Source of the DNA: Mobula hypostoma
Lineage: Eukaryota
Assembly (NCBI RefSeq): GCF_963921235.1
Contig: NC_086108.1
Coordinates: forward strand, 42,224,001-42,288,000
DNA: 64,000 bases
Direction of reading: 5' to 3'
Position numbers and translations under genes: made by a program. Shown piece after piece: positions 1 to 60,762 of this stretch. Numbering within the stretch: the first letter of the stretch is position 1; every line of letters starts with the position of its first letter. A model generated the notes under the pieces. It made no database searches. It was given only the letters and a program-made list of their open reading frames with translations, and was not told the DNA's origin.

Positions 1-200
1 TAACCTGCAAGTCACCCTTAGGTAAGGTGTAGCACCTACTTAGCCCCCCAATCAGGGTTTCGCGAAGCCAAGCAAGCAGTTGGCGGATGGTCGTATGAGC
101 ATTTGGTGCATGTTTCAAGTCCAGGTTATGCGACCAGTGGCACCAGGCAGACAATCGCTGAAGAGCATTGATACGGCTGGGGTCACCTGTCTTGTAAATT
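1..200 (+). repeat. Partial interspersed repeat (SINE/RTE-associated non-autonomous element, truncated by window edge)
   Basis: GC-richer island that ends abruptly against AT-rich DNA. Resembles chondrichthyan SINE/RTE-tail sequence by recognition only. Confidence 0.3.
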
Positions 201-649
201 TGCAGAATATAATATCAGGCCATCCATAAAAATAGGAAAATCAAAAAGTTCAGGAGATTGGTATTGTTTTACTTCGAGTATTCTTAGCTTTGTTTAATAT
301 ATTGTACAGATACTTATATACAGCCATTGTATTGCATTTGGCAATTGCAACATAGAAGTATGTCAGTGTATTCACAACTCTGAGCTACTGTATTCTGCTC
401 ATTCACTGATCCTTTTTATTAAACCTCTGAGGAACAGCCAGGTAAAAGTAGCCTTTTACCTACCCTCCTTTCATTTCATTCAACCTTTTTTAGAAAAAAA
501 CTTAATTCATCCATATAGACACACGACACCGACTACAAGAGTTGGAATATCATGTTGCAACTGCACGTTAATTGAAATAGATGATCTTGTTTGGCAGACA
601 TATATATGGGTCCCCTTCTGCGCTGTATCACTCTGACCTGCTGAATATT

Positions 650-1500
650 TAGAACATAGAACGGTATAGCAGAGTATGGGCCTTCTGACACTATGTTGTG
701 TCAACCTATATAAGCATACATCATAGTCAATCTAACTCTTCCCTCCTATACAATTCACAGCCCACTATTTTTTCCACATACACATGCTCTGTCTAAGAGC
801 CTTTTAAATATCCCATTTATTAGCCTCTACCAACCCCCCCCAGCAGTGTTTTCCATGCTCCCACCACTATCTGTAAAAAAAAATAATCAAATCCACCTCT
901 GACATCTCCCGTAAGCTTCCCTCCACCACCTTAAGTGGATGTCATCTAGTATTGGCCATTGCAGCACTGGGAAAATGGTATTGCTTATCTACTATGTCGC
1001 TCATAATCTTGTATTCTACTATCAAGTCGCTTCTTATCTGTCACCCCAAAGAGAAAAGCCCGAGCTCGCTCAACATTTCCTCATGAGGCATATTCTCTAG
1101 CATTCCAGTAAATCATCTCTGCACCCCCTTTAAAGCTTCCACATCTTTCCTATAATGATGTTACCAGAAATGAACAAAATACTCCCAAGTGTGGTCTAAC
1201 CAACTGCAACATTATCTTGTAGCTCTTCAGATTAATTTATTTATCACAGGTACATTGGAGCTTCGTTTTCGTTAACAACCAACACAGCCCAAGGATGTGC
1301 TGGGGGGTAGCCCTCATGTGTTGCCGTACGTTCCAGCTCTTGAACACAATTACCCAACAAATGAAGGCTAACACATCACTGGCTTTCTTAACCACCCTAT
1401 CAACTTTCACAGCTCCTTCGAGGGATCTTGCACCCTAAGATCCCCCTGTTCTTCCACACTGCTGTGAATCACACCATTGACCTTTTACTTTGCCTTTTGA
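650..1500 (-). mobile_element. CR1 LINE 3' fragment (decayed), with a small nested insertion at 1228-1334
   Basis: AGAACATAGAAC tail at the left end and reverse-complement similarity to the CR1 3' ends at 8690-9157 and 38850-39375. The nested piece is flanked by AGCTCTT at 1221-1227 and 1335-1341. Confidence 0.7.
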
Positions 1501-2707
1501 ACAATTTCTAATTCTATTGCAGATTTCCACTGTTAGTGGTCTTTTATCATCTCACAACAATGCTGAAAGAACTTTCATTTTCTATTCTATTCAATTTTGT
1601 AAGCTGTGATTCCTCATCCTAGATATGTCTACTGTTTAGAAAAAAAAACATTTTTTCATTCCATGTTCTGTTTTCCTTAATTGAAATATTTGTGTTACAA
1701 ACCATAGCTGGCCCATTATTCTACAGATAAAAAAACAGGGTTTTCAACTCAGTCGTTGTCTGATATGAGGCTACACAAGAACAATGTTAAAGTAAATTCC
1801 TTCTGTATTAAAATTTAGTTATCTTTCCCAAAGTCTGGATTACATGATTACAGGAGGTGCTCTTAAAATCAGCTTAATCTGAGGTGTTGCCCTTATAGCC
1901 TGTACATGTACACACCCAAATGTAACTCGGGATTCGGAGATTGACATTCTGTGATGCAAGCCATTCTGTTAGATTATGGTAGACCTGAGTCTGAACTCCA
2001 TTCTTCCACCTTGCTTCTGTAACCCTTAATTTCTCTCGCCTAAATGAAAATCCATGAATCACAGTTCTCAATTTTGTTTTTGACAGAACATTAATGAGTT
2101 AGTTAAGTGGAGTATCATAATTTGAATTTGCTTTGGAAGAAAATACGTATACTGATCTAATTTCTGATTAACTTTCATGTGCTGGAGTCACATGCAAGAG
2201 GAAATGGCTTCTTCCCCTATCAGTACTGTTTCACTAGGTCATTCTCTTCTTATTCTGCTCGTTTGAAGGGAATATAAGCTTCAGGTATACAAGCTGTCCT
2301 TCTGATTCTGGTAAGCCTGTGATTCAGTCTTACCATAAGATGCCTTCAGCATCCTTAACATGACCTCTATCTCTTGTATTTCATCCCTCTTGGGTTAAAG
2401 TGTTTCCTGTTAGTAGCCTTTTGATCTGGCCAGAACATTTTTTCCAACTCCCCTTCCACAAACCAAATTAATTTTATTCATGGAATGTTTACAATTGTTA
2501 TTTGGATTTACTTGCATTGATTTCAGTCCATCACTTTTTAAACCATTTTCTTGGATCCTACCAATAACCATTGTAATTGACTTCGGTGGTCTTCGTAATT
2601 TTCATTTCCCAATCTGGCTCTTTTATACATGGTACCCCAGAAATGAATTTGTGTGCACACCACTATCTACATAGAACTTCTGTGAAAAATTGTCCTGAAT
2701 TTTTATT

Positions 2708-2914
2708 TGCAAACAACAGGAATTCTGCAGATGCTGGAAATTCAAGCAACACACATCAAAGTTGCTGGTGAACGCAGCAGGCCAGGCAGCATCTATAGGA
2801 AGAGGCGCAGTCGACGTTTCAGGCCGAGACCCTTCGTCAGGACTAACTTCTGACGCCTCTTCCTATAGATGCTGCCTGGCCTGCTGCGTTCACCAGCAAC
2901 TTTGATGTGTGTTG
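2708..2914. mobile_element. Penelope-derived short insertion with inverted terminal duplication
   Basis: Perfect 62-bp inverted repeat at 2746-2807 / 2854-2915. 14-bp direct repeat CCTGAATTTTTATT at 2694-2707 and 2915-2928. Sequence matches the 3' terminus of the Penelope copy at 17425-19128. Confidence 0.85.
2808..2845 (-). ncRNA. Minimal type I hammerhead ribozyme (intact core)
   Basis: Minus strand reads UAGUC-CUGACGA-AGG(GUCUCGG)CCU-GAAAC-GUC-GACUG. This gives stem I UAGUC/GACUG, a CUGANGA box, a 3-bp stem II, GAAA, palindromic ACGU in place of stem III, and a GUC cleavage triplet. Confidence 0.8.
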
Positions 2915-5758
2915 CCTGAATTTTTATTGTCTGTTTTCAGGCTTGCAATAAATTTTTAATTCAGGTTGCCACCATCATTATCGTTCTCACCCCATTCAGC
3001 ATCCTCACCACTATAATGACATTCCCATTATTCTTATCAAATAAACCATAGTTAGGAATCCTCATTTCTACAGTCTATTTCATTATGCCATCTATCATGC
3101 ATGTTATGCCAGGCAGGCAGATCTACTAAAAGAATGGTCCCAAATGCTGAGACATTCTACCGCACCAAATGCAAACGCTATCTCCTTGGCAATGCTGTTA
3201 GTAACAAACTGACTTGTGAGTAGACTTGTTCAGAGTGAATGCTGTACTTTGCTCAATTGCCAAAACTACCAGATTTCATATTAGCCAGTGAACATGTCTA
3301 TAAGATAGACCAATGAAAGTAAGTTCAGTGAAAAATTACCCTTGTTGTTTCAAGGCAAGTTTTTTTTTGTACAGTTGTTTCTACCTGGAGACTTTAATAT
3401 AGTTATGTTCAGCATTTCCGTTCTCTTCTCATCACTTTACTCAGCCTATTCTTCTGCAAACTATGTGAAAGGAAAATGATATGTGGCCTTTATTAATTAC
3501 ACTCAGCTGTTCATGATGAGTCACTGTCTTCTTTTCCCTTCTTCCAACATGTGTGCCACCAACTCACCTTCCCAGATCCTCTTGTTCTTTGCTGACATGA
3601 GAATTTGATCCTAAGTCAAGACATAGGTAGAATTTTAAAGTCGCCCATAGTACATCACAGTTTGATACATTGCAATCAAATCCTCAAAAAATTTCCCTTT
3701 CCTATTTTTTTTTGTGATTTAGTTTTGAAATCTACTGCAGTGTCTTTGGCAAGGTGATGGACCATCAATGACATTATATAAAAGGCCTACTTTAAATATT
3801 TAATTGAACGAAATGTAGAGGTCTGTGTATCTGAAGGCAAAGCAGCTTCTTACAGTAACCTGAGTACAGTACAGACATTGTCAGACCAATGGTAACAGAA
3901 TTCTGAAAGTGATTTATGTATGTATACAGTATGTGGTATTTATGCACCTTTGGAATTTTATTCTGTGGGTGTCCCATTTTTCACCAGTGAGTAATTGTAG
4001 GTTTATTTTTTATAACATAGTCTGAGGTGTTTAACTGGTTACTGGGTGGAGATACTTGCCAGATCTAGTTTAAAAACAAAGAAAGGATCTGATAGGAGCT
4101 AATGAAAACATGTTTGCTTAGAAAGCTACCAGGTGCTGTTAGAATTGAGTGGTAATTAGTGAGAGGGAGGTGATTTGGGCACAGAGCAGTAATTTTGCTA
4201 TGTTGATTAAAAAAATAGATGTCCTCATGCATTGTGTTGCCACAGCCACCTCTTGATGTTTTTTTTTCTTCAGACCAAATAAGGACACATTTGAGCTTGG
4301 CTGGGGTAAAATGAGCAATTACACTTCCTGCATGAGAAATCAGAGGTTAGGTAGCATTTGTGGAAGCAAAATCTTGTGCTGTGCAATTTTTTGCCCAGTG
4401 ACGACAACATGTGCGCACTGAATAATTTCCTCAATAAAAACAGTATAAATAAGCCCATTCTAAAATCTGCCCGACAAATCATCGCAAACTCCACGTTGTC
4501 AACTCTGTCCGCTTCAGAAACTGGAAAACAAAATGTGTTTGTGTACAGTAGTGAAATATACTTAACATGCCAATGAGATAGAGGGTGACAGCCTTTTGTG
4601 CACAGTCTAAACTCCTTTGTGTGCTGGTAGCAAAAGATGTGTTTGCACGCACACCTTAGAGGGAATGTTGTGTAGAACTATAATGCTGCATGAAACCAAA
4701 ACTCAAGAAGAGGCGATAAAGAGGGTTTTTTTTTATAACTTCGTGAATCAGTGTCAAATCAAGCTGATTACAAAACACAGCAAGCAAAAAAGGCATGTCT
4801 TGACAGACTAACCCACTAACATGCTATGGAATACTGTACTATATATATATATAAAGTTGTTTGAGTGTCTGTGTGTTGGGGGGAGTTGCTGCATGTGTGT
4901 TTCATATGGGATTCTTTAACTTCGGTCCATTAATTTGCATGTTGAAAGTCAACTCAGCCACAAAATTTTGACAGTTTATTTTTTTAGAATTAATACTTTG
5001 CAAGGTGAGGATTTAAAAAAAAGTTTAAAAAAGTTTCCCAGTTTTCCTGTCTCACAAGTTAGTTCTTCGCCAAAGCAGACTGCTGGACACATGCCAGACT
5101 GACAGCCCCATCCAGAAAAGACCTGCTTGGGTGATATATGTGGTGGGTCTCTCAGCAGATTTTTTTGTGTGGAGAAGGCACAAAAGTTAATGCTAACCTT
5201 CCAGTCCTGCCCCACTGCATAGTGGAATTGTTTGTTATGAAATAACCAGAGAGGATTTGTGGTAAGGGTGAAGTTGCTTCTCCAGAGAGCCAGAAGAAAA
5301 CTCAGAGAATGGGGCAGAAAATATTTTGTGAGCTTCTGAGTAGCCAGGTTAGGGGATAGGATTAGCAGACGCTGTGAAACAAACTTTGGAGCCTGCATTT
5401 GGAAGCAACAATTTTAAGTGGGGGAGCATTCAGTTCTTAGTCTGAAGAGCTGTGAATTATTTTTATCTTAAATCTCTTCAAATATATATCCATCTAATAT
5501 ATGTAGGAAATTAGAACTGCTTTCGTGTGACATAGTTGCCAATGCTCATGATAGCTGAGGGAATACCTTTGACTGAAAGTAGATTTCTACATGAACACCA
5601 TTAGTAGCTGACATGCATTGGCAAAGATGGGTAGGTCAGTCTGAAGATTTGAAGTACATTGATTCCAGTTAATTGGGACACATCGGGACTAGTACATTTT
5701 GGCTTAATTAAGTGGCTGTGCCAATTAGCCAAAGTTTCATGGAAATAGTTTAAAAGGT

Positions 5759-8700
5759 ATAGGTAGGAAAAGGGAGGAGGTCCTGAAAACATAGTACAGG
5801 GAGTTAGGAAAGAAGCTGAGAAGCAGGACCTCAAAGATAGTAATCTCGGGATTACTGCCTGTGCCACGCGACCCTGAGTATAGGAATAGAGTGAGATGGA
5901 GGATAAATGCGTGACTGAAGGATTGGAGCAGGGGGTAGGGATTCAGATTTCTGCATTGTTGGGACCTCTTTTGGGGCAGGTGTGACCTGTACAAAAAGGA
6001 TTGGTTGCACTTGAATCTCAGGGGGACCAATATTTTAGCGGGGAAGTTTGCTAAGGCTATTAGGAAAGTTTAAACTAGAATTGCTGGGAGGTGGTTGGCT
6101 CACAAATAGAGAAAGCTTGTAGACAGTATCAGAGGGAGGATAGGCAGGTGATAGAGAAGAGATACACTCAGACATGGTTTGAGATGTGTCTATTTTAATG
6201 CAAGGAGTATTGTGAACAAAGTGGATGAGCTTAGAGCGTGGATCAGTACTTGAAGCTATGATGTTGTGGCCATAACAGAGACTTGGATGGCTCAGGGGCA
6301 GGAATGGCTACCTAGAGTGCCAGGCTTCAGATGTTTCAGAAAGGACAGGGAGGGAGGCAAAAGAGGTGGGGGCATGGCACTGTTGATCAGAGATAGTGTC
6401 ATGGCTGCAGAAAAGGAGGAAGTCATGGAGGGATTGTCTACTGAGTTTCCATGGATGGAAGTTAGAAATAGGAAGGGGTCAATAACTCCACTGGGTGTTT
6501 TTTTTACAGACCACCCAATAGTAACAGGGCCATCGAGGAGCAGATAGGGAGACAGATTCTGGAACGGTGCAGTAATAACAGGGTTGTCATGATGGGAGAT
6601 GCATCTCCCTAGAGCAAGGGGTTTAGATGGGGTGGAGTTTGTTAGGTGTGTCTAGGAAGGTTTCCTGACACAGTATGTAGATACAAGAGGAGAGGTTGTA
6701 CTTGATCTGGTATTGGGAAATAAACCTGGTCAGGCATCAGATCTTTCAGTGGGAAAGCATTTTGGAGACAGTGTTCACAGTTCTATTTACTTGACCATAG
6801 CATTGGAGAGGGACAGGAACACAAATTAGGGAAGGATTTAATTGGAGTAAGGGGAAATATGAAGCTATCAGGCAGAAACTTGGAAGCATAAATTGGGAGC
6901 AAATGTTCTCAGGGAAATGTACGACAGAAATGTGGCAAATGTTCAGGGGATATTTACGTGGTGTTCTGCATAGGTACAGGGAAAGGATGGTAGGGTACAG
7001 GAACCGTAGTGTATAAAGGCTGTTGAAAATCTACTCAAGAAGAAAAGAAAGGCTTACGAAAGGTTCAAAAAACTAGGTAATGATAGAGATCTAGAAGATT
7101 ATAAGGCTAGCAGGAAGGAGTTTAAGTGAAATTAGGAGAGCCAGGAGGGGCCATGAGAAGGCCTTTGCGAGTAGGATTAAGGAAAACCCTAAGGCATTCT
7201 ACAAGTATGTGAAGAGCAAGAGGATTAGACGTGCAAGAATTGGACAAATCAAGTGTGACAGTGGAAAAGTGTGTATGGAACTGGAGGAGATAACGGAGGT
7301 ACTTAATGAATACTTTGCTTTAGTATTCGCTATGGAAAAGGACTTTCATGATTGTAGGGATGACTTACAGCGGATTGAAAAGCTTGAGCATATAGACATA
7401 GAGAAAGTGGATGTGCTGGAGCTTCTGGAAAGCATCAAGTTGGATAAGTTACTGGGACCGGACAGGATGTACCCCAGGCTACTGTGGGAGGTGAGGGAGG
7501 AGATTGCTGTGCCTCTGGCAATGATCTTTGCATCATCAATGGGGATGGGAGAGGTTCCGGAGGATTGGGAGGGGGTTGCAGATGTTGTTCCCTTATTCAA
7601 TAAAGGGAGTAGAGATAGCCCAGGAAATTATAGATCAGTGAGTCTTTCTTCAGTGGTTGTTAAATTGATGAAGATCCTGAGAGGCAGGATTTATGAATAT
7701 TTGGAGGGGCATAATATGATTAGGAATAGCCAATACGGCTTTGTCAAAGGCAGATCGTGCCTTATGATCCTGATTGAATTTTTTGAGGATGTGACTAAAT
7801 GTGTTGATGAAGGTAGAGCAGTATATGTAGTCTGTATAGGCAACGTAACTTCATTGGACATATGATTAGGAAAGAGGAGTTAGAATGCACGGTAATTATG
7901 GGAAAGATTGAAGGGAAGAAAGCAGGAGGAAGACAAAGACAAATGATGATGGAGACAGTAACCAGAGAACTGGAAATGAATACCAATGAATTGATCTACC
8001 TGACCCGAAACAGGAGTGTGTGGGCCATGGCAGTCACAGCACCTGATGATGATGGTGATATGGATTTTATCAAGGCCTTTGATAAGGTACCCCATGCAAG
8101 GCTTATTGAGAAAGTAAGGAGGCATGGGATCCAAGGGGACCTTGCTTTGTGGATCCAGAACTGGCTTGCACACAGAAGGCAAAGAGTGGTTGCAGATGGG
8201 TCATATTCTGCATGGAGGTCGGTGACCAGTGGTGTGCCAAATGGATCTGTTCTGGCACCCCTTCTCTTCATGATTTTTATAAATGACCTGGATGTGGAAG
8301 TGCAAGGATGGGTTAGTAAATTTGCTGATGACTCAGAGGTTGGGGGTGTTGTGGATAGTGTAGAGAGCTGTCAGAGGTTACAGTGGGACATCGATAGGAT
8401 GCAAAACTGGGCCTAGAAGTGGCAGAGGGAGCTCAAACCAGATAAGTGTGAGGTGGTTCATTTCGGTAGGTCAAATATAGTCGCAGAATATAGTATTAAT
8501 GGTAAGACTCCTGGCAGTGTGGAGGATCAGAGGGATCTTGGGGTCCAAGTCCATAGGACACTCAAAGCTGCTGCGCAGGTTGACTGTGTGGTTAAGAAGC
8601 CGTACAGTGTATTGGCCTTCATGAACCATGGGACTGAGTTCAAGAGCTGAGAGGTAATGTAATAGCTATATAGGACCCTGTTAAAATTATAGAAAGGGTG

Positions 8701-9157
8701 CAGAGAAGATTTACGAGGATGTTGCCTGGATTGGCGAGCATGCTTTATGAGAATAGGTTGGGTGAACTTGGCCTTTTCTCCATGGAGCAACGGAGGCTGA
8801 GTGGTGACCTGACTGAGCTGTATAAGATGATGAGAAGCATTGGTCATGTGGATAGTCAGAGGCCTTTTCCCAGGGCTGAAATGGCTAACACGAGAGGGCA
8901 AGTTTTAAGGTGTTGGAAGTAGGTGCAGAGGACATATCAGGGTTAAGTTTTTACCAGAGAGTGGTGAGTGCGTGGAATGGGCTGCTGGCAACAGTGGTGG
9001 AGGCAGGTATGATAGGGGACTCCTGGATAGGTACATGGAGCTTAGAAAAATAGAGGGCCATGGGTAACCCGAGGTAATTTCTGAAGTAAGTACATGTTCG
9101 GCACAGCATTGTGAGCTGAAGGGCCTGTATTGTGCTGTAGGTTTTCTATGTTTCTAT
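5759..9157 (+). mobile_element. CR1 LINE: 3' end of ORF1 (SGNH esterase-like) plus disrupted ORF2 (APE endonuclease + RT)
   Basis: ORF1 remnant ISGLLPVPR...LHLN..GTNIL; endonuclease AITETW, RKDREGGKRGGG; RT PGNYR.VSL, YGFVKGRSC, DF.KAFDKVPH, SGVP.GSVL, KFADD; TTCTATG-type tail. Many stops and frameshifts. Confidence 0.95.
7839..8057 (+). mobile_element. RTE (BovB-like) LINE 3' fragment nested in the CR1 RT domain
   Basis: Interrupts CR1 motif VY|MDF. Encodes FIGHMIRKEELECTVIMGKIEGKK.GGRQR, typical of the RTE ORF C-terminus, and ends in a (TGA)n tail. Confidence 0.8.
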
Positions 9158-9278
9158 AAAAAAGTCAAACTACTGTTTAGCTGAGTAACAAATTATATAT
9201 TTAAATAAAATACAGAACAAATTGAAGCATTACCCATACTACCACAATACTATAAAACTGTGAATTAGTTTCTATTAG

Positions 9279-9960
9279 ATTATGAGAACACTCAGTCCTC
9301 TTTTATTGTCATTTAGAAATGCATACCTGCATTAAGAAATGATACAATGTTTCTCCGGCGTGATATCACAGAAAACAAGACAGACCAAAGACTAACACTG
9401 ACAAAGCCACATAATTATAACATATAGTTACTGCAGTGCAAAGCAATAGCATGATTTGATGAAGAACAGTCCATAGGCACAGTAAAAAAAAAAATCTCAA
9501 AGTCCCGAGTCGATCGACTCCCGAGTCCCCAATAATGGCGGTAAAAGGGAGAAATTCCCTGCCATAAACCTCCAGGCACCGTCAACTTGCCGATACCTTG
9601 GAAGCAGCCGACCACAGCTGACACTGAGTCCATCCGTCCGAAAACTCCAAGTTTCCAAGCAACCTCTCCGATACAACCTCCCGAGCGCCATCCTCTGCCG
9701 AGCGCCTTCAACCTGTCCCCGGCCGCTGAAACACGCAAAGCTGAGGATTTCAAGGCCTACAGCTCCAGAGATTCTGGTTACCACACAGTAGCAGAGATAG
9801 CAAAGCAGACACTTCAGTAGTTTTCCAGATGTTCCGCTATACACTCACATCTGTCTCCATCAAATCAGGACTGTGCACGGTCCCCTACTTGACAGATAAC
9901 AGATATTCATCACCGGAGAGGCCGCGCGCACTGTCATCACGCCGCCATCTTCTCCCGTCG
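9279..9960 (-). mobile_element. Non-autonomous retroelement with 5' AAGATGGCG start, nested in the Tigger element
   Basis: CpG-rich island. Minus strand begins GGGAGAAGATGGCGGCG and ends AATAAAAGAGGACTGAGTGTTCTCATAATC. Candidate TSD TATTAG at 9273-9278 and 9962-9967. Confidence 0.6.
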
Positions 9961-11649
9961 ATATTAGTTATCGACGAAAGAATTCATCCAGTGTATGCTG
10001 CTGTGTTCTCTTGATTGACTGTAAAGGAACAAAATCAGCGCAAACACCTAGTGCAGAAAATGGACTGCTTTCATGCAATGCTTTCCACAGTTGCATCCTC
10101 CAAATCTTCATTTTCATTGTAATGTTCGTGATGTTTGTCAATACCTTTCAATTCTTCGTAATTCCTAACTTGCTGAAGTAGTGAAAACATTTCATTTTCA
10201 TTCCCAGCCGTTTCTGTCTTCTCCAAGCTTGAGTACTTGAAACCGCAGTGATCAAAACAGTTTTGAATTTTCTCACTGCTTACTTCTTGCCAACTATTAG
10301 TGACAAAAATCTCTGCTTTTTGAACACAAACATACACAACTGACACTCTTTGTAAACTGTTTGATCGAAGTATGGTGCCGTGCCTAACGGCCACACAAAT
10401 GCACATAACTGATGCTGTTCGTCAGTAGTCTCCTGTCACAATTAAGTAGCATTGTGTCCCAAGTAAGCAGCTGCCCCAGTTAACCGATTGCTCAATTAAC
10501 CAGAATCCACTGTATTGTAGTGGTGCAGCTCTGAGCTATCAGCCCAGCAAGCTCTTGTTTGTTTCATTTAGTTTCTACACACACTGCAGGGTCAGAGTAG
10601 TGCACAACAGAACACCAACTCCCTCACTGGTGTCATTTTCAGAGACTGTGGCTTGTACATGTTCTGCTGCTACTGGGACAAAAAGGCTGCATTCCTTCAT
10701 ATGGCAATCTCACCTCAAGCTAAAATGGGAAAGAAGTGAAACAGGTGTGACCAAGATATTTCTAACATTGATATTTTAAATAACCTCAGTGCTTTGAAAG
10801 AAAAAAAAATGAGGAATGTATCCTTTACAAGGAACTTCCTTGATGAGTAGGATATGCTACCTGTCATCCAAGTTGTTTGTGTCCACAGACGACAATTAAC
10901 AGGAAATATGTTTATTGATGAATTCTTTCAATTCCAGATCTATTATCCATGTAAGCTAAGTTTAATACAATAAGGCTATAAAACACATTTTTCTAGTCCT
11001 GGTGCTGAGATGTGGTTAGATTTTGTTCCATTGTTGGTTGTGACACAGTTTTGATGGGTAATTCCTTTAGGCATAATCTGGGAAGCCTGAGTTGCAAGCC
11101 AGAAATTGTGAATTGCTTCAAGGCGGTAATCTAGAAATGTCTAAATACCAGCATAGGACAACTCCATTAGATGTAACATGTAAGTGATATAGAATTGTTC
11201 CCTTATCCTCTTCCTTCCCTTTGTAGGAAGCTTGTCAGTCAATATTGAGCAAAGTAAATGCAGTGGAAGATAATTTGCCTCAGGAATTCTGCTAAACTAC
11301 TGTTAATCTGAATTACGCTGTGCCGAGTAGGTGGACATACAGTATTACATCTGCAATGAAATTTCCTCTGACCTCATTGTGTGAAACTATGAGAAAGTCT
11401 TCACATCACATATGCCTCAATATGAATAGGCACCCAAAGCTCTTTTCACTTGTTCCACCCATTGTAATTAACTGCAACAGCCAATTCATAAGGAGCATTG
11501 ATGGTCCAGCTCAAACAAAATCAACCATAACTTTGGGCACTAAGCAAAAGCAGTAAAACATCCAGAGTATATTGTAAGTTATATCTATCTATTGAGTGAC
11601 TTTGTCTCGTGGATTTTACAACACCAGAGTTGTTGGTAAAAATCTCAAG

Positions 11650-12748
11650 CTGTGGTGAGGAGGTGTTTGGAAGAGAGATGGTTAAGCTGGTTGAGTGGTG
11701 TTGCACAGCAGCCTCACATTCCATGTTAGCAACACCAAGGAATTGATTTCAGGACTTCAGGAAGGGGAAGAAGGGGAAAGGCACACCATTGAGAGTTCAG
11801 CAATGGAAAGGATGAGCAAGTTTCTGGGTGTCAGCATCTCAGAAGGTCTATCCTGGACCCATCACATTGCTGCAATCACAAAGAAGGCAAGCCAGCACCT
11901 GTACCTCATTAGGAGTTTGAACAGCTTTGGTACATAACCAAAGATTTTTGCAAAAATCTATAATGTATGGTGGAAAGCATTCTGATTGGTTGTATTATAC
12001 CTTGGTATAGAGGCTTCAATGCAGAGGATTGCAAGCGCTACAGAGGGCATTGCGGACCTCTTTAAGAGATGGTACTTCAAGAAACCAGTATCCATCACTA
12101 AAGATCATCATCGTATAAGGTGTGCCCTCTTCTTTAATACCTTTAGGGAGGAGGTACAAGAGCCTGTAGACCCACACTCAACTATTTAGGAACAATTTCT
12201 TTCCCTCAACCATTAGATTTCTGAACAGTCTATGAATGCTACTTAATTATTCCTTTTTATGAATTTGTATTTAGTAATTTCTAGTCGTTTATGCCCTTGC
12301 ACTGTACTGTTGCTGGAAAAAATACATTTCTCATCACTTCTCATTCTCATCAGCATCATCCATTGAGCAATATCATGAAGGATCCCACCCATCCTGCTTA
12401 TGGACTGTTTGTCCCACTTCCATCAGGGAAGAGACTACGCAGCATTCATGCCACTACCAGTAGATTCAGTAACAGTTACTTCTCCGAAGCCATCAGGCTG
12501 ATCAACACCTCCACCCATTGACTCATCCACCCCCCAGCACTACATGCTATATGTATATAACAGTTACTTGTACATTGTGTTATATAACATTGATTTCAGT
12601 GTGTTTATTTATGTTTTTTAATTGTGTTCTTTATGCTTATTGAGTTTTTTTTTAAAAAGCTGCATCAGATCCAAAGTAACAATTATTTTGTTCTTCTTTA
12701 CGTCCATATGCTGAAGAATGACAATAAGCAGTCTTGAATCTTGAATCT
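11650..12748 (+). mobile_element. Rex-Babar-type LINE 3' fragments (two pieces)
   Basis: Remnants NTKELI, KFLGVSISEGLSWTHHI..ITKKASQHLY and IMKDPTHPAYGLFVPLPSGKRLRS; (CTTGAAT)n tail at about 12733-12748. Confidence 0.7.
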
Positions 12749-12828
12749 TACCAATTAGTGACAATAAATCGGATTCTGATATATGCTAGAATTATGGCTG
12801 TTTACAAAACAATATATAAAATTACTTT

Positions 12829-13214
12829 GCAAGCAACACACATAAAAATTGCTGGTAAACGCAGCAGGCCAGGCAGCATCTCTAGGAAGAGGTACAGTCG
12901 ATGTTTCGGGCCAAGACCCTTCGTCAGGACTAACTGAAGGAAGAGTGAGTAAGGGATTTGAAAGTGGGAGGGGGAGGAGGAGATTCGAAATGATAGAAGA
13001 AGACAGGAGGGGGAGAGATGGAGCCGAGAGCTGGACAGGTGATAGGCAAAAGGGGATACGAGAGGATCATGGGACGGGAGGCCCAGGGAGAAAGAAAGGG
13101 GGAGGGGGGAAGCCCAGAGGATAGGCAGGGGGTATAGTGAGAGGGACAGAGGGAGTAAAAGGAGAGAGAGAAAAAAAGAATGTGTGTATATAAATAAATA
13201 AATAACGGATGGGA
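12829..13214 (-). mobile_element. Penelope 3' UTR/terminal fragment
   Basis: Reverse complement of the Penelope pyrimidine-rich 3' region. 11-bp TSD AAAATTACTTT at 12818-12828 and 13215-13225. Confidence 0.8.
12895..12932 (-). ncRNA. Minimal hammerhead ribozyme (core intact, AUC triplet)
   Basis: Minus strand: UAGUC-CUGACGA-A-GGG(UCUUGG)CCC-GAAAC-AUC-GACUG. The ACGU palindrome is changed to ACAU, consistent with CpG decay. Confidence 0.7.
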
Positions 13215-13329
13215 AAAATTACTTTTTCTTCACAGTGAACTCAGTGGTAAACTGTAGAGATGCCTTGATGCCCTTTCAGTTGCCTGTTTTATTAATGAAC
13301 ATTTTTAGCTACTGTAGTAGAAGCACTAT

Positions 13330-14040
13330 ATTCAGAATCAGGTTTATTATCACTGACGTTAGTTATGAAATGTGTTGTTTTGTGGCAGCATTACAATGCA
13401 GGCCTAAGTTACTGTAAGTTACAATTTAAAAACAAGTAGTGCAAAAGAGAAATAGTGAACATTCATTAGTTTATGGGCCATTCAGAAATCTGATAGCAGC
13501 TGGGAAGAAACTGTTCCTAAAATGTTGACTCTGGGTCTTCAGGCTCATGTACTTCCTCCATGAGTGTGATAATGAAAAGAGGGTCCTGAGTGGTGAGGGC
13601 CCTTCATAATGGATACTGCCTTTTTGATGTACTCTTTTGAAGATGTCTTCATTGGTAGGAGGCTTGAGCCGGTGAAGGACTCCTGAATCAACAACCCTCT
13701 GCAGAATGTTATGATTCTGTGTATTGGCTCCTCCATAGAGTATTAGATGGCATACCTGATCTCCTCAAAGTTGGAATGGTATAGTCACTGGCATGCCTTC
13801 TTCACGATTGCCTCAATATGATGGACGCAGGATAGTTACTCTTGAGATTTTCACACCCAGGAGCTTGGAACTGACCCCTTCATAAGAATTGGTACATGCT
13901 CACTCAACTTCCCCTTCCTGAAGTCCACAATCAGTTCTTTAGTCTTGCTGACATTGAGTGCAAGGTTGTTATTGTGACACAATTCAACCGGCAGATCTAT
14001 TTTGCTCCTGACCCACCACCTCGACATCATTATTCCAGTA
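13330..14040 (-). mobile_element. Rex-Babar-type LINE 3' fragment (decayed)
   Basis: TTCAGAATCAGGTTTATT tail at the left end; remnant KKAVSIMKGPHH; similar to 24755-25945 and 52325-53420. Confidence 0.65.
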
Positions 14041-14239
14041 ACAAGTAATTTCTTGTACTTGTTTCATTCTGCTAATTGTATTAAATATGCATCGCTCATT
14101 TCCACTGACCTTACCTGTTTTGCGTTTAGGAATCTTTGTAAAATTAAAACTTACGGAAGTTAAGGAGAAACGTCTCTGCTGGCCAGAGTCAAACATGACA
14201 GAAAAGGGTGGCTGTGGTTGTTGGTGGCTAATCAGCTCT

Positions 14240-17424: not shown

Positions 17425-19128
17425 ATTCACTTCCATCCCTCACCAGGAAGGCGTCAAAGCTCTCCATTTCTTTCTGGACACCAGACCCATCCAGTTCCCT
17501 TCCACAACCACTCTCCTCCACTTCAGAACTTGTCCTCACTCTAAATAATTTCTCTTTGGCTGCTCCCACTTCCTTCAAACAAAGGGGGTAGCCATGGGCA
17601 CTCACGTGGGACCCAGCTATGACTGTCTGTTTGTCGGCTACATGGAACAGTCTTTGTTCCAAGCCTGCACTGGTGACCATCCCGCACTTCTCGTACACTC
17701 GTCGACGACTGCATTGGTGCTGCTTCCTGCACCCGTGCTGAACTCGTCAATTTCATCCACGTTGCCTCCAGCTTCCACCCTGCCCTCAAATTCACCTGGT
17801 CCATTTCCGACACTTCCCTTCTCTTTCTCGATCTCACTGTCTCTATCTCTGGAGACAGCTGATCCACTGATGTCTATTATAAACTAACAGACTGTCACAG
17901 CTACCTGGACTAGACCTCGCCCCACCCTGCCACTTGTAAAAATGCCACCCCCTTCTCTCAAATTCCTCCATCTCTGCCACATCTGCTCTTAGGATGAGGC
18001 TTTTCATTCTAGAACGAAGATGTCCTCCTCTTTCAATGAAAGGGGCTTCCCTTCCTCCACCATCAATGCTGCCCCCAACCTCATCTCTTCCATTTCATGC
18101 ATGTCTGTTCTTGCCCCATCCTCCAGCCACCCTACCAGGGGTAGGATTCCTCTTGTTCTCACCTACCACCTCACCAGACTCCACGTCCAGCACATAATTC
18201 TCCAAAATTTCCGGAACCTCCATCTGGATCCCACCACCAGGCATATCTTTCCCTCCCCCCCCCCCCCACTTTCTGCTTTCCGCAGGGATCACTGCCTACG
18301 CGACTCCCTTGTCCATTCGTCCCTTCCCACTGATCTCCCTCCTGGCACTTATCCTTGCAAGTGGAACAAGTGCTACACCTGCCTTTACACCTCCTCCCTC
18401 ACTACCACTCAAGGTGCCAAACAGACCTTCCAAGTGAGGCGACGCTTCACCTGTTAGTCTGTTGGGGTCAAATACTGTGTTTGGTGCTCCCAGTGTGGCC
18501 TCCTGTATATCGCTGAGATCCGACTCAGATTAGGAGACCGCTTTGCTGAACATCTACGCTCCATCCGCCAGAAGAAGCGGGATCTGCCAGTGGCACCCAT
18601 TTTAATTCCACTTCCCATTCCCATTCTGATATGTCCATCCATGGCCTCCTCCACTGTCACACTTAGGTTGGAAGAGCAACACCTTATATTCCATTTGGGT
18701 AGCCTCCAACCTGATGGCATAAACATCGATTTCTCAAACTTCCAGTAATGCCTCCCCCACTTCACTATTTCCCATCCCCTTGTCCCTCTCTTATGTTATC
18801 TCCTTGTCCACCCATTGCCTCTCTCTGGTGCTCCTCCCCACCCCCTTTTTTCTCCCATGGCCTTCTGTCTCTTTCACGAATCAACTTCCTAGCTCTTTGC
18901 TTCATCCCTCCCCCTCCAAGTTTCACCTATCGCCTGGTGTTTCTCTCTCCCTTCCCCCCACCCATCAAATCTACTCCTCAGGTTTTTTTCTCCAATCCTG
19001 CTGAAGGGTTTCAGCCTGAAATGTCGACTGTGCTTTTTCCCATAGATTCTGCCTGGCCTGTTGAGTCTCTCCAGCATTTTGTGTGTATTGCTCAGATTTC
19101 CAGCATCTGCAGATTTTCTTGTGTTTGC
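17425..19128 (+). mobile_element. Penelope-like element (Neptune-type), 5'-truncated: RT + Cys-rich linker + GIY-YIG endonuclease, disrupted
   Basis: LVLTLNNFS, KGVAMGT..GPSY.CLFVGY.E, FHPALKFT, PLVLTYH, linker C.WNKCYTC, endonuclease VKYCVWCSQCGLLYIAE..R..RF.EHLRSI...RLEEQHLIFHLGSLQPDGINIDFSNFQ* (stop 18746-18748). Pyrimidine-rich 3' UTR with a degenerate hammerhead at 18993-19030. Confidence 0.92.
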
Positions 19129-20109
19129 AATCCCTGTTGTGCAAAGTAGTCACAATGTTGCTATACTGAGATAGTAATTAGGGTTGTGCCAGTTGGTTCA
19201 ATAACGGAATGGTTGAAGGGAAGGATCTGCTCCTGAGCCCAGTGGTGTGGGACTGTACTTCCTGCCAGATGGGAATTGGTCATTTTCTAGTATGGCAATT
19301 TGAATGTTCAGGAACACAAGACCCTACAAAGAGTAGTGGACTCTGCCTAATATATCACAGGCATATCCCCCTCTCTATCAATATCTGCAGGTGATGTTGA
19401 CACAAGAAGGCAACATCCATTATCAAAGCATGATACAGGCCATGTCATCTTCTCACTGGTACTATTGGTTCCTCTATGAGGTTAACTTAATATAAATTAT
19501 CCTTTGCATATGATTCAAGAGTTCTTTTCTTAAAAATTGGAACAGCAGCAAGGGAAGATGTTGTAACCAGTTGACCAGCTTCGAAGTCACTATTTAAAAC
19601 TTTTCACTGTTTCAACGATGACAGCGCGTGCCTATGAGACTCCTCTGGTGACTGAATTTCAGAGATCGATTGGTAGCTGGCCTATTGCATCTTGTCCATG
19701 TGCAGAGTGCTCCAGGGGTTAACATTATTCTTGACGCTTACTTCTCTCAATCAATAATAATGGCAATTATAAAATAATTGAATTTTAATAGACTGAGTGA
19801 TGGAAGCCACTTTATCTGTTAGAAGCAATCATTGTTTTATTTCTATTCACTCTACATACAAATGATGGGATATTTTATGTGTTTCAGTAGTGATCATTAG
19901 ACAAGCTTAGTGCTATCAGTTACCTGGTTATGGAATGCTGTGTAATTTGTGTCATGCCTACCTTCCTTATTGGAGCAGTTTTAATCTGAATGTGCTTCTG
20001 AAGCACTGCCCAAGATATCATCAATGATTTACAGCCATGATCTCTTTTATTAGTGTCTTCAATTCTATTAGAACAATTATTAACACATCCTTTGAAACAG
20101 ATGCCTTCA

Positions 20110-24754: not shown

Positions 24755-27700
24755 AGACTTGAAAGTAAATTTATTATCAAAGTACCTAAATGTCACCATA
24801 TACAATCCTGAGATTCATTTTCTTATGGGCATTCTCAATAAATCCCTAATAGAATAATATTCATATTAGAATCCATGAAAGACTGCACCAACTCAGTCAG
24901 TTTGCAAAAGACAACAAACTGTGCAAATACAAAAAGAAAGAAATAGTAATAAAAATAAATAAGCAATAAATATTGAGAAATGAGACGACGAGTCCTTTAA
25001 AGTGACTCGATTGGTTGTGGGAACATTTCAATGAAGGGGCAAGTGAATTTATCCCCTTTGGTTCAAGAGGCAGATGGTTGAAGGTGATAACTGGTGGTGT
25101 GAGTCCTGATTCTTCTGTACCTTCTTTCTGATGGCAGCAGCAAGAAGAGAGCATGTTGTGGATGGTGGAGTCTCTCATGATGGATACTGCTTTCCTGTGA
25201 CAGTGTTTTGTGTAGATGTGCTCAATGGTGAAGAGAGCTCTACTTGTGATGGATTGGGCCGTGCCCTCTACTTTTTGTGGAATTTTCCATTCAAAAGTAT
25301 GGGTGTTTCCATACCAAGCTGTGATGCAGCCAGCCAATATACTCCCCACTATAGAAGTTTATCAAAGTTTTAGATGTCATGCCAAATCTTCACAAACTCC
25401 TAAGGAAGTAGAAGTGCTGCCGTGCTTTCTTTGCAATTGCACTTACGTGCTGGGCCCAGGACAAGTCCTCTGAAATAATAACATTGAGGAGTTTAAAATT
25501 GCTGACCCTATCCGCCTCTCATCCTCCAATGAGGCCTTGCTTATGGACATCTGGTTTCCTTCTCCTGAAGGCAATAATCAGTTTCTTGGTCTTGCTGGCA
25601 TTGAGTAAGAGGTTGTTGTTATGACACCACTCAGCTAGATTTTCAATCTCCCTCCTATATGCTGATTTATTACCAACTTTGATTTGTCCAATGACACTGC
25701 TGCCATCAGCAAACTTGAATATGGCAGTGGAGCTGTGCTTAGCCACACAGTCGTAAGGGTAAAGCGAGTAAAGCAGGGGACTAAGCACACAGCCTTGTAG
25801 TGGAGATGGTGGAGGAGATGTTGTTGCCGATCCTAACTGAAGAAATCAAGGATCCAGTTGCACAGGGAGGTATTGAGGCCAAGGTCTTGGAGCTTATTGA
25901 TTAGTTTTGAAGGGATGATGATATTGATTGCTGAATTGTAGGTGATCCTATTTAGTGTTATTATTTCTGATGACCTGTCCTGGGCCTGGCACGTAAGTGC
26001 AATTGCGAAGAAAGCACGGCAGCATCTCTTACTTCCTTAGGTGTTTGTGATGTTTCAGCATGATATCTAAAACCTTGACAAATTTCTATAGATGTGTAGT
26101 GGAGAGTATATTGACTGGCAGCATCACAGCTTGATATGTAAATACCAATGCTCTTGAATGACAAATCCTACAAAAAGCAGTGGATAGAGCCTAGTCCATC
26201 ACAGGTAAAGCCCTCCCCACCATTGAGCACATCTACATTGAATGCTGTCTCTGGAAAGCAGCATCCATCATCACGGACACCCATCACCCAGGACATGCTC
26301 TCTTCTCACTGCTGCCATCAGGAAGAAGGTACAGGAGCCCCGGGACTCACTCCACCAGGTTACTAACCCTGAACCACCAGCCTCTTGAACCAAAGGAGAT
26401 GACTTCACTCAACTTCAGTTGGCCCATCATTGAAATGTTCCCACAACTAATAGACTCACTTTCAGGACTCTTCATCTCATGTTCTTAATATTTATTGCTT
26501 ATTAATTTATTATTATTTCTTTCTTTTTGTGTTTGCACAGTTTGTTGTCTTTTTCACACTGGTTGAATGCCCAAGTTGGTGCTCTCTTTCATTGATTCTG
26601 TTACGGTTATTACAATTTATTGAATATACCTGCAGGAGAATGAACCTCAGGGTTGTATATGGTGACATGTATGTATTTTGATAAATTTACTTTTCACATT
26701 CAACTTTTGAACTTGAAAGTGCAATCCTGTTGTATGTATCTTTATTGTCCGGATGTTTCAGGGTTGAGTGAGGAGCCAATAAGATGGCTTCAGCTGTGGA
26801 CCTGTTGCCCTGTAGGAAAATTGGAGCAGATCCAAGTCACTTCTCAGGTAGGCGTGGATGTGTTTCATCACGAACCTCTCAAAACTCCATCAGTGATTGT
26901 AAGTGCTGCTAGATGATAGTCATTGAAGCAGGTTGCCAAGTTCTTCTTGGGCACCGGTATAATTGATGCCTAATTGAAGCGGGTGGGTAACTCAGGCTAC
27001 CGAAGTGAAAGGGTAAAGATCTCAGTGAACACTCCAGCCAGTTGATCAGCATAGGTTATTAGTTCTTGGCCATGTATCTCGCCTGGGTTGGATGCTTTTC
27101 ATGGGTTCACCCTCTTGAAGGCTGCTTGCACGTTGGCCTTAGAGACTGAAGTCACAAGATCATTGGGGCCTTTGGGAGTTCGTGATGGTTCCTCCATGTT
27201 TTGATGGTCAAACTGAGCATAGAAGGCATTCAGCTCATCTGCAAGTAAAACCCTATATGGCTTGATTTAACTTTACAAGAGGTGATAGTATTTAAGCCCT
27301 GTCACAAATCTTGAGCATCCTTTGTTGATTCAAGTTTAGTTTGCCACTTTGCCTGTGAGATGGCTTTCTAGAGATCATACCTGGACCTCTTGTAACTTTC
27401 TTGACCACCAGACTTTGACCTGGCCCTCAGCAGATTGTGGATCTTATGATTCATCCAGGGCTTCTGGTAGGGGAAAACTGAATGATTTTGTGGGGTACAC
27501 TCCTCTACGATTATTTTAATAAAGTCGGTGATAACCGTGGTGTATTCATTCAGATCCATAGATGAGTCCTTGATCACTGCCCAGTGCACTGACTCGAAGA
27601 TACCCCATAGCCGCTCCTCTGCCTCCGATGACCTCCTCTTTGTTGTCTTGATCGCTGAAGCTTTGTTCATTAGCTTCTACTTGTATGCAGGTAGGAGAAG

Positions 27701-33310: not shown

Positions 33311-33829
33311 CATAGAAACGTAGAAAACCTACAGCACAATACAGGCCTTTCGGCCCACAAAGTTGTGCCGAACATGTCCCTACCTTAGAAATTACTAGAC
33401 TTACCCATAGCCTTCTATTTTTCTAAGCTCCATGTACCGATTCAAAAGTCTTTTAAAAGACCCTATTGTGTCTGCCTCCACCACAGTTGCCGGCAGCCCA
33501 TTCCATGCACTCATCACTCTCTGCGTAAAAAAAACTTAACTCTGGCATCTCCTCTGTCCCTACTCCCCAGCACCTTAAACCTGTGTCCTCTTGTGGCAAC
33601 CATTTCAGCCCTGGGAAAAAGCCTCTGACTATCCACACGATCAATGCCTCTCATCATCTTATACACCTCTATCAGGTCACCTCTCATCCTCCTCCTCTCC
33701 AGAGAGAAAAGACAGAGTTCACTCAACCTGTTTTCATAAGGCATGCTCCCAAATCCAGGCAACATCCTTGTAAATCTCCTCTGCACCTTTGCTATAGCTT
33801 CCACATCCTTCCTGTAGTGAGACGACCAT
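33311..33829 (-). mobile_element. Young CR1 3' fragment
   Basis: ORF 33514-33804 VQRRFTRMLPG..YENRLSEL.LFSLERRRMRGDLIEVYK; CATAGAAAC tail. Confidence 0.9.
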
Positions 33830-34261: not shown

Positions 34262-34922
34262 ATCAAACCTTTACATCTTCTCACCCGCCTATCACTTTCC
34301 CCTGGGCTCCCTCCTCCTTCCCCTTTTCCTTTGGTACACTCTCCTCTCCTCCTATCAGATTGATTTTTCTCCAGCCCTTTAACTTTCCCACCCATCTGGC
34401 TTCCCCATCACCTTTCAGCTAACCTCCTCCCCCTCCCCCCCCCCCACTTGGCTTCCCTTATCACCTTTCGGCTAGCCTCCTTCCCTCCCCCCTCCAACCT
34501 CCCTGGTTACCTGGCTTCCCCTATCACCTTTCAGCTAGCCTCCTTCCCTCCCCCTCCCCCCAACCTCCCTGGCTACCTGGCTTCTCCGATCACCTTCCAG
34601 CTAGCTTCCTTACCCGCCCCACCCCCCCTCCAAAACCTGGCATTCCCCTATCACCTCCAGATCTTCCAGCTAGTCTCCTTCTCTCCCCCCCCCCCGCCCA
34701 CCTGGGTTCCCCTATCACCTTCCAGCTAGCCTCCTTCCCCTCCCTCCCCCCAACAATTATATTCTGGCATCTTCCCTCTTCCTCTTCAGTCCTGAAGAAG
34801 GGTCTCAGCCCGAAACTTCGACTATTTATTCATTTCCCTAGATACTGCCTGACCGGAGTTTCTCCAGTGTTCTGTGTGTGTGTTGCTTTGGATTTCCAGC
34901 ATCGACAGCCATTCTCATGTTT
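34262..34922 (+). mobile_element. Penelope 3' UTR with internal ~50-bp tandem expansion and near-intact hammerhead at 34787-34824
   Basis: About six imperfect copies of CCTGGCTTCCCCTATCACCTTCCAGCTAGCCTCCTTCCC(C)n at 34390-34750, then CAGTC-CTGAAGA-AGGGTCTCAGCCC-GAAAC-TTC-GACTA. Confidence 0.8.
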
Positions 34923-35425
34923 GAAATTTATGTTGTTACCTATAGAGTGTTGGAGGATGAGGGGAGACCAGATTGAAGAGTCTATACTTACCAGAGTGAT
35001 AGATGGGGTAGATGGTCAGGATCTTTCCCCTGGGTAGAAATATAAAACACCAGAGGACATGTTTTTAATGTTGGAGCGGGGAAGTTTAAAAGTGACCTGA
35101 GGGGCAAGTTTTTTACACAGAGAGTAGGTTCCTGGAGTGGGTTACCATGGGTAATAGTGGATGTAGCCAATTTAGTGGAGTTACAGAAGCTTTTAGATAG
35201 ACACATGAATATGAAGGGGATGGATATTGATACACAGGCAGAAGACATTTGGTATAAATTGGCATCAAGGTCAGCATGAGATCATGGGCCGAATGGCCTG
35301 TCCAGTGCTTTACTGTTCTATGTTCTCAAATCAATTACTCTCACCAAGAAAAATGCCAGGACAACTAATTGGACTAAGTGCTGAAGAGTTCCATGTTTTA
35401 AGAGAATTAGCTGCAGATATAGTAA

Positions 35426-38849: not shown

Positions 38850-39375
38850 AATGTTCTCCCTTCTGGTCGCCTCACTACAGGAAGGATGTGGAAGCCATAG
38901 AAAGAGTGCAGAGGAGATTTACAAGGATGTTGCCTGGATTGGGGAGCATGCCTTATGAGGATAGGTTGAGTGAACTCGGCCTTTTCTCCTTGGAGCGACG
39001 GAGGATGAGCGGTGACCTGATAGAGGTGTATAAGATGATGAGAGGCATTGATCGTGTGGATAGTCAGAGGCTTTTTCCCAGGGCTGAAATGGTTGCCACA
39101 AGAGGACACAGGTTTAAGGTGCTGGGGAGCAGGTACAGAGAGGAGATGTCAGGGTTAAGTTATTTTACTCAGAGAGTGGTGAGTGCATAGAATAGGTTCC
39201 GGCAACAGGGGTGGAGGTGGATACGATAGGGTCTTTTAAGCGACTTTTAGCTAGGTACATGGAGCTTAGTAAAATAGAGCGCTATAGGTAAGCCTAGTAA
39301 TTTCTAAGGTGGGGACATGTTCAGTACAACTCTGTGGGCCAAAAGGCCTGTATTGTGCTGTAAGTTTTCTATGTT
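38850..39375 (+). mobile_element. Young CR1 3' fragment
   Basis: ORF 38831-39190 FWSPHYRKDVEAIERVQRRFTRMLPG; near-identical to the reverse complement of 33311-33829. Confidence 0.9.
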
Positions 39376-39394
39376 TCTCATCACATATCATATC

Positions 39395-48381: not shown

Positions 48382-48548
48382 GTCTTGGCCTGAAATGTCG
48401 ACTGTTTATTAATTTCCATGGATGCTGTTTATTAATTTCCATGGATGCTGTTTATTAATTTCCATGGATACTGTCTGACCTGCCAAATTTCTCCAGCATT
48501 TTGTATGTGTTGCGTTGGATTTCTAGTATCTGCAGTCTTTCTCGCGTT
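48382..48548 (+). mobile_element. Short Penelope terminal fragment with half hammerhead and 3 x 23-bp tandem repeat
   Basis: Begins GTCTTGGCCTGAAATGTCGACTG; unit CTGTTTATTAATTTCCATGGATG x3 at 48402-48470. TSD AAAGATAAGA at 48372-48381 and 48549-48558. Confidence 0.8.
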
Positions 48549-60331: not shown

Positions 60332-60762
60332 AACCATAAGACACAGGAGCAGAATTAGGCCATTTGGTCCATCGAGTCTGCTCCACCATTCCATCATGGC
60401 TGATTTATTTAAAAACGCAAACATGAGGAAATCTGCAGATGCTGGGGTCCCGGCCCGAAACGTCGACTGTATCTCTTCCTATAGATGCTTCCTGGCCTGC
60501 TACGATCATCAGCATTTTTTTTTTGTGTGGTGGCTGATTTATTACCTCTTTCAACCCCATTCTCCTGCCTTCTTCCCATAACCTTTGACACCCTTCCTAG
60601 TCAAGAACCTTTCAACCTCCACATTAAATATACCCAATGACTGGGCCTCCCCAGCCATCTGTGGCAAAAAAATCCACAGATTCATTGTCCTCTGGCCAAA
60701 GTAATTCCTCCTCATTTCTGTTCTACTGGGACGCCCTTGTATTCTGAGGCTGTGCCCTCTGG
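60332..60762 (-). mobile_element. CR1 3' fragment with nested inverted Penelope-terminal insertion (60410-60530)
   Basis: RGHSLRIQGRPSRTEMRRNYFGQR remnant; nested piece flanked by TGGCTGATTTATT at 60397-60409 and 60531-60543. Confidence 0.8.

Follow-up and report, generated by a model that had tools for sequence, protein, structure and literature searches.

A 207-bp hairpin with a hammerhead motif in Mobula hypostoma: almost certainly a truncated Penelope-like insertion, probably primed from both target strands

The 207-bp hairpin that lies 2.8 kb into the window (the whole 64,000-nucleotide stretch of DNA analysed here) is almost certainly a severely 5'-truncated Penelope-like insertion, and it was probably formed by the end-joining of two cDNAs, each primed from a different target strand at one of two start sites. 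Its arms and its ribozyme motif are known traits of Penelope-like elements (PLEs), and the insert is the published insertion pattern of these elements in miniature. The locus itself is unremarkable among the very many truncated Penelope-like inserts, and its value is that of a clean, young and well-preserved specimen. The 2.8-kb copy, its empty site and a sister insert at 60.4 kb favour priming from both target strands at two start sites, and they bear on the origin of the Penelope inverted repeats and one-sided tail and on hammerhead use in vivo.

Anatomy of the insert

The arms at 2746–2807 and 2854–2915 are exact reverse complements by direct comparison (0/62 mismatches) around a 46-nt loop, as the first-pass annotation had claimed in describing a perfect 62-bp hairpin; a repeat finder, when extending the arms, gives 70 nt with one mismatch and the same 46-nt spacer. 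The insert is bounded by a 14-bp direct repeat at 2694–2707 and 2915–2928 (plus strand), base 2915 being common to the inverted arm and the right repeat, and 207 bp separate the two copies. It consists of a 141-nt tailed copy placed head-to-head with a tail-less inverted copy. In RNA sense, the inverted tail-less arm (2915 to 2854) is followed by a 5-nt filler and then by the direct copy, which starts at 2848 and runs through the hammerhead and the arm into a 38-nt extension (2745 to 2708). The last family bases upstream of the hammerhead are 2846–2848 on the minus strand, where identity to the copy at 12.9 kb ends; this is where the tailed copy is truncated on its 5' side, 36 nt beyond the predicted cut. 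The direct arm (minus strand) is identified by exact complementarity and family alignment as the pLTR sequence between hammerhead and tail. The inverted arm (plus strand) begins at the foot of stem I, 5 nt downstream of the cut, and extends to the second standard end of the family. The extension at 2708–2745 (minus strand) is the Penelope 'tail', present at one insert end only, with the outer reverse transcriptase (RT) start site at about 2708–2711; loose ends of contigs peak at 2709–2711 in the public runs X1 and X5 and at 2710 in X9 and X10. The identity of the tail and the coincidence of the inverted arm with a standard family end had both been overlooked in the first reading of this DNA.

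The filler at the head-to-head junction, delimited by sequence comparison to 2849–2853, looks locally templated from the host flank, where the octamer 2675–2682 (plus strand) is identical to 2845–2852 and is the candidate template. The chance of such a match is 0.3–0.6% for a fixed octamer within 25–50 nt, a figure to be read in the knowledge that the match was spotted post hoc.

In the accessible text of PMC8557442 and PMC3846280, a Penelope insertion combines an inverted 5'-truncated copy with a tail of 30–40 bp at one end, and the 2.8-kb insert has the 38-nt tail, the inverted 5'-truncated copy and the target site duplication (TSD) of insertions by endonuclease-bearing PLEs. The two standard 3' ends are family-wide: among 24 listed internal contig pieces, 11 carry at least 31 foreign letters on the tail side, five of them starting at 2709–2718 and six at 2741–2745 (tail ends were counted in 32 listed rows, beside 163,422 further rows). 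In PAc of the anole, according to the available portion of PMC11167929, two RT start sites delimit the tail, the element cuts and extends both target strands in vitro, and AT-rich targets are preferred. A second insert with the same architecture lies at 60397–60543 (no strand assigned), with a 13-bp TSD, an inverted tail piece and a direct tail-less piece that do not overlap, and the joint 2741 to 2858, found in X1 and X5, likewise joins non-overlapping pieces.

The parent family

To judge from sequence, the parent is a very abundant endonuclease-bearing PLE of the ray genome with a Neptune-type linker. The unit matches ten other loci of the window at E≤0.006 and one more weakly, and contigs matching it at ≥85% number 97,047, 40,698, 24,631 and 16,061 in the four runs. 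A long decayed copy at 17426–19129 (plus strand) carries an RT, a CX4CxxC linker, a GIY-YIG domain, a pyrimidine-rich 3' region, a decayed hammerhead and a tail; its end is 81% identical to the 2.8-kb unit, and upstream it runs into a decayed open reading frame. When a 154-aa piece of that frame was searched, it matched 15 proteins among 381 candidates, 13 of them from Mobula, Hypanus, Rhincodon or Stegostoma. One protein, P0009, aligns to 17426–18745 of the window (E 7e-97) and has a Pfam RVT_1 match below the cut-off and a GIY-YIG match above it. The top atlas matches for the parent protein are GIY-YIG with a score of 0.94, and four decayed window fragments searched on their own gave no Pfam match. 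The order of an RT followed by a C-terminal GIY-YIG is that of endonuclease-bearing PLEs, and a CCHH motif with two cysteines between GIY and YIG (YCxxCxxCGxLYIGE and downstream histidines) is present in P0001, P0009 and the window translation. The C-x4-C-xx-C linker, seen at 17993–18454 of the window and in P0001, P0002 and P0009, has the CX2-5CxxC form of Neptune, a form common to Neptune and Nematis in the accessible text of PMC8557442, and the assignment as Neptune-type rests on this motif. This parent copy, with its RT, linker and GIY-YIG, and the pattern of tail and TSD bear out the Penelope-like origin proposed earlier.

The closest relative in the window, at 12819–13225 (minus strand; 91.5% identity over 106 nt), is tail-less, has a 10-bp TSD and extends about 315 nt past the cut site, and a short tailed copy at 48372–48558 (plus strand), likewise flanked by a 10-bp TSD, has its start within the hammerhead, some 18 nt ahead of the cut. 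The parent subfamily looks young: at 2806, the share of depth with the non-T allele is 32% in X1 against 1.2% in X5. A Pfam scan of 78 of the 93 listed stop-free frames of 1–7000 and 9200–14200 revealed no host exon. The same scan found one LINE-type endonuclease at 6254–6544 and, besides it, one weak match below the cut-off.

Empty site and age

Contigs of the four public runs were aligned to 2300–3300. In X5, which has another organism label, one 2075-nt contig (record 17) joins 2693 directly to 2915 with one copy of the repeat, and in the flanks of this contig 13 of 763 bases (1.7%) are different, in addition to one 14-nt gap. The single copy at this empty site identifies the direct repeat as a true TSD, as first proposed for the ~207-bp insert, and the insert as young: the insertion is younger than the split from the X5 species, or was polymorphic at that split. 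The recent date given in the first-pass annotation is thereby supported, although the zero arm mismatches offered as its proof only bound the arm divergence at <4.7%. The contigs of X9 and X10 stop at the site, with no alignment to the element, and none among those listed bridges it, and the empty site is thus seen in X5 only.

The X1 contigs, which possibly come from the window's own sample, match the window without a difference across the two outer junctions, where the element runs in opposite orientations, so that an inversion inside the insert is required; no listed contig spans the central junction. That X1 record 1 is unbroken over the left junction is a weak hint that this sample lacks the empty allele. 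It is next to impossible that the hairpin is a palindromic chimera of the assembly: none of the listed contigs spans the whole insert, as such an artefact would allow, but the opposite orientations at the two outer junctions demand the internal inversion, and the TSD and the empty site in X5 agree with a real insertion.

The hammerhead motif

The minus strand from 2845 to 2808 reads as a minimal type I hammerhead, in terms of its core residues and of the Cervera and de la Peña definition in the accessible text of PMC4209133, with a 5-bp stem I, CUGACGA, an extra A, a 4-bp stem II, GAA, a palindromic ACGU in place of helix III, and C17. The predicted cut falls between 2813 and 2812, and the site (2812–2813, minus strand) is intact in the DNA. 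The features of a minimal PLE core are all present (CUGANGA, GAA, UC at the cut, a palindromic 15.1–16.1, an extra base after A9, and helix I), which sustains the earlier reading of a dimer-type motif with this cut. They are kept together in the 2.8-kb copy alone among ten window motifs. The stem II proposed earlier, AGG/CCU, is replaced here: the closing position is C in five other window copies, which mispairs in that register, and stem II is best read as an unpaired extra A followed by the 4-bp GGGU/GCCU. The C allele at this position accounts for 20%, 22%, 61% and 76% of depth in X1, X5, X9 and X10. The 2.8-kb copy thus has G10.1-U11.1 where the conserved pair is G-C.

The first-pass annotation had suggested a check with the Rfam covariance model, which gave no hammerhead match at gathering score across the window and none at E≤10 in 2500–3100 or 2790–2853. 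The hammerhead call consequently rests on the core residues, the family context and the published definition, and the missing score fits a motif without helix III. Rfam also returned microRNA matches, which were hairpin-driven and far below gathering scores and were discarded. An exact scan of metagenome contigs for the hammerhead motif found none.

By itself, the hammerhead of the 2.8-kb copy is probably inactive, as its single copy and G-U closing pair would lead one to expect. The ACGU duplex computes at −3.1 kcal/mol, and the computed fold of the monomer is a non-catalytic hairpin (z 0.08 to −1.24). In the accessible parts of the respective reports, minimal PLE hammerheads in vitro showed no cleavage as monomers and low cleavage as dimers (PMC4209133), the PAc ribozyme required protein to cleave (PMC11167929), and one of nine Xenopus retrozyme dimers was cleaved (bioRxiv 10.64898/2026.07.22.740005). 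In this insert the hammerhead is carried along passively as part of the terminal repeat.

Mechanism of insertion

In the mechanism considered probable, a GIY-YIG endonuclease would nick both strands of the AT-rich site 14 bp apart, a spacing taken from the TSD. The 3' end of the top strand would prime a cDNA at the tail end that runs 141 nt through the uncut hammerhead, while the 3' end of the bottom strand would pair with the RNA over 9 nt and start another cDNA from the tail-less site, which lies 38 nt inward of the first. This second cDNA would run 61–62 nt and stop at the foot of stem I, and end-joining would then unite the two cDNAs head-to-head, the short filler probably being copied from the nearby flank. 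At the right TSD copy, the bottom-strand 3' end can indeed pair with the element RNA just beyond the tail-less end (9 consecutive pairs, one of them a wobble), and 11 of the 127,960 window positions offer pairing of this quality. A second target end complementary to the RNA at an internal priming site is what twin priming predicts; capture of a folded-back cDNA would fit it too. Junction microhomology averages 1.86 nt in 14 inversion joints against 0.62 nt for random breakpoints (P 2.5e-5), with the proviso that short contigs may favour microhomology joints. These and the following joint statistics cover the 15 joints with most support out of 277, together with 12 of the 255 filled joints and 24 of the 1094 loose ends, with X1 incompletely counted. 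On the other side, both arms have the same lineage-enriched variant at 2806–2807 and therefore come from one template type, two cDNAs would have to share or displace one template, the identity of the arms is likewise predicted by fold-back, and the 9-nt match may have served for landing instead of priming. In a literature search that left most subscription journals outside its reach, no paper was found that states two-strand priming for PLE inversions.

The principal competitor is a single tail-primed cDNA that folded back near stem I and used its own arm as template, the target capturing it by way of the 9-nt match at the tail-less end. Self-priming is how Arkhipova et al. read the inverted junctions of rotifer Penelope elements in the available portion of PMC3846280, and it would explain arms without a mismatch in 62 positions. 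There are 4-nt self-complementary matches across stem I in the uninterrupted family cDNA, and indel rows at 2850–2855, although ambiguous, suggest that a few contigs of X1, X5 and X9 cross a similar turn. We nevertheless regard this origin as unlikely: the junction is not clean, having the 5-nt filler, and the arm ends at the ordinary tail-less end of the family. The non-overlapping pieces of the 60.4-kb insert and of the joint 2741 to 2858 could not have been made by fold-back at all. Still less probable, and in our estimate very unlikely, is the model of the first-pass annotation in which self-cleavage set the inversion point, the inverted arm being copied from an RNA with a hammerhead-made 5' end so that the RT ran off near 2812. 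The arm does stop 5 nt from the cut, and a joint in X1 has its end precisely at 2812 and resumes at the tail (one of 12 filled joints listed out of 255), but the stop is 5 nt short, and one of two ends would lie this close in about 19% of cases by chance if ends were uniform over 2741–2848. When 14 of the best 15 of 277 joints are read as inversions (2711/2744, on opposite strands, being left out), none has an end within 6 nt of the cut; the second pieces start 7–43 nt from it, and the first pieces end 7–71 nt short of it (11 joints) or 29–30 nt past it (three joints), although junctions with an end inside 2808–2848 may be under-represented among the joints listed. The best 24 of 1094 loose-end rows show no peak at 2812, none of six listed pieces with long foreign 5' sequence ends there (the table favours long pieces), and among the six piece ends of four TSD-bounded window inserts none is at the cut and one is within 5 nt. 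The tailed copy reads 36 nt through the site and its template was therefore uncut or re-ligated. Mutants of the PAc ribozyme leave insertion unchanged and no reads end at the cut, as far as the accessible text of PMC11167929 goes. The cut site mostly does not seem to set the inversion point.

A variant with differently processed RNAs, in which a cleaved RNA gave the inverted arm and an RNA that was uncut or re-ligated (circular) gave the tailed copy, is quite unlikely; if it were true, a minority of inserts would bear the trace of a minimal PLE hammerhead cleaving in vivo, an activity not reported in the accessible parts of the literature examined. The first reading had raised an active non-autonomous mini-element as a possibility; that the 207-bp hairpin is a mobile unit of this kind is highly improbable. 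The insert is young, keeps its tail and has the sole fully intact hammerhead core of the window, and in X1 the junction, with its depth summed, is covered about 100-fold more deeply than the flank, which would allow a few copies. Depth across 2852, however, is 0.019% of the family depth in X1 and 0.002–0.005% in the other three runs, so that at most about 0.02% of family depth crosses the junction, and X5, which lacks the insert at this locus, still has 40 times its flank depth there; ordinary copies are therefore the likely source of most of the junction depth. The junction has not been amplified and is hence not that of a mobile mini-element, and its octamer is identical to the adjacent host flank of this very locus. 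Nor are there tandem units: a retrozyme would have at least two, each with a hammerhead, whereas a single motif is found here and the next family motif, 10 kb off, has lost its palindrome. Two-strand priming, with its two cDNAs joined end to end, is the reading retained below.

Comparison with known systems

The comparisons that follow are confined to the accessible portions of the reports cited. The closest parallel is Pen2a_Av of Adineta vaga (PMC3846280; scheme in PMC8557442), which also has an inverted 5'-truncated terminal repeat beside a direct copy, a one-sided tail of 30–40 bp and a TSD around the unit. The copies of the 2.8-kb insert differ in being too short for any ORF, the hairpin measuring 207 bp, and in having a filler instead of a palindrome at the junction. 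PAc, a Poseidon element of Anolis carolinensis (PMC11167929), shares the two RT start sites that bracket the tail, the AT-rich targets, and a hammerhead shortly upstream of the start sites that is read through in inserts. It belongs to another clade, Penelope/Poseidon, without a linker Zn finger, and inverted inserts are not described in that text as products of two-strand priming. The minimal hammerheads of metazoan PLEs (PMC4209133) are likewise of type I and without helix III, with a palindromic 15.1–16.1, an extra base between 9 and 10.1 and a short helix I, and they too occur mostly as single dispersed copies and also as opposite-strand pairs; the 2.8-kb copy departs from them in its G10.1-U11.1 instead of G-C and in a helix II of 4 bp against 7–8 bp in Schistosoma families. 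Non-LTR retrozymes (PMC7229834; bioRxiv 10.64898/2026.07.22.740005) are similarly small, non-coding, PLE-derived and hammerhead-bearing, but they are tandem repeats with at least two ribozymes, whereas the insert is an inverted unit with one motif. In twin-primed L1 insertions (PMC9148063), a second cDNA is primed by the other target overhang, which anneals to an internal part of the RNA, and an inversion within the TSD is the outcome, as would be the case here. The second priming site of the Penelope-like insert differs in being a fixed site of the element only 38 nt from the first, and with start sites this close the two cDNAs would overlap and give rise to an inverted duplication.

Repeat content of the window

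Repeat density is high across the window. At 6254-9157, 35215-37588 and 40672-43938 there are long LINE-like ORFs, now decayed, that have endonuclease and reverse transcriptase motifs, and two pairs of related repeat fragments are in opposite orientation, 24762-25483 and 25956-26693 with 79% identity and 33314-33828 and 38864-39378 with 89% identity. No host exon was found by Pfam in the window frames scanned (78 of the 93 stop-free frames listed, covering 1-7000 and 9200-14200). The family of the main insert, at 2.8 kb, has a further inverted insert made of two pieces, located within another repeat at 60397-60543; it is flanked by a 13-bp TSD and shares the TSD end TTTATT with the main insert. 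Tandem duplications are present in other copies of the family. The 48-kb copy has a short internal triple one just downstream of its hammerhead (48400-48470), and the 34-kb copy has several in the pyrimidine-rich region that lies upstream of its own (34400-34750). The ORF of the parent Penelope-like element is also included in two ray gene models that carry host-gene names, P0004 and P0006, which are probably annotation fusions.

Sequence variation in and around the ribozyme motif

Just downstream of the hammerhead, the minus strand of 2790-2807 has a pyrimidine run followed by AG and then ATG, an arrangement that is retained in older copies and resembles the splice acceptor consensus. At position 2821, the G-U closing pair of stem II accounts for ~80% of the depth in public run X1 and in X5, a run labelled as another organism, and is not dominant in runs X9 and X10, so that a young subfamily with a weaker ribozyme may have spread. 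In the flank, X5 is without the 14-bp stretch 3023-3036, and X9 and X10 have a 6-bp insertion behind 3061.

Joints at the hammerhead in other copies

One X1 joint among those listed, 2812 to 2709, breaks off exactly at the predicted cut and resumes at the tail, which is what a template jump off cleaved RNA would be expected to give. Four other X1 joints among those listed go back (2843 to 2806, 2844 to 2808, 2848 to 2816 and 2848 to 2818), and represent tandem duplications, in other copies, of the hammerhead or a part of it. Such duplications could be a source of cis dimers or the seeds of retrozyme-like arrays.
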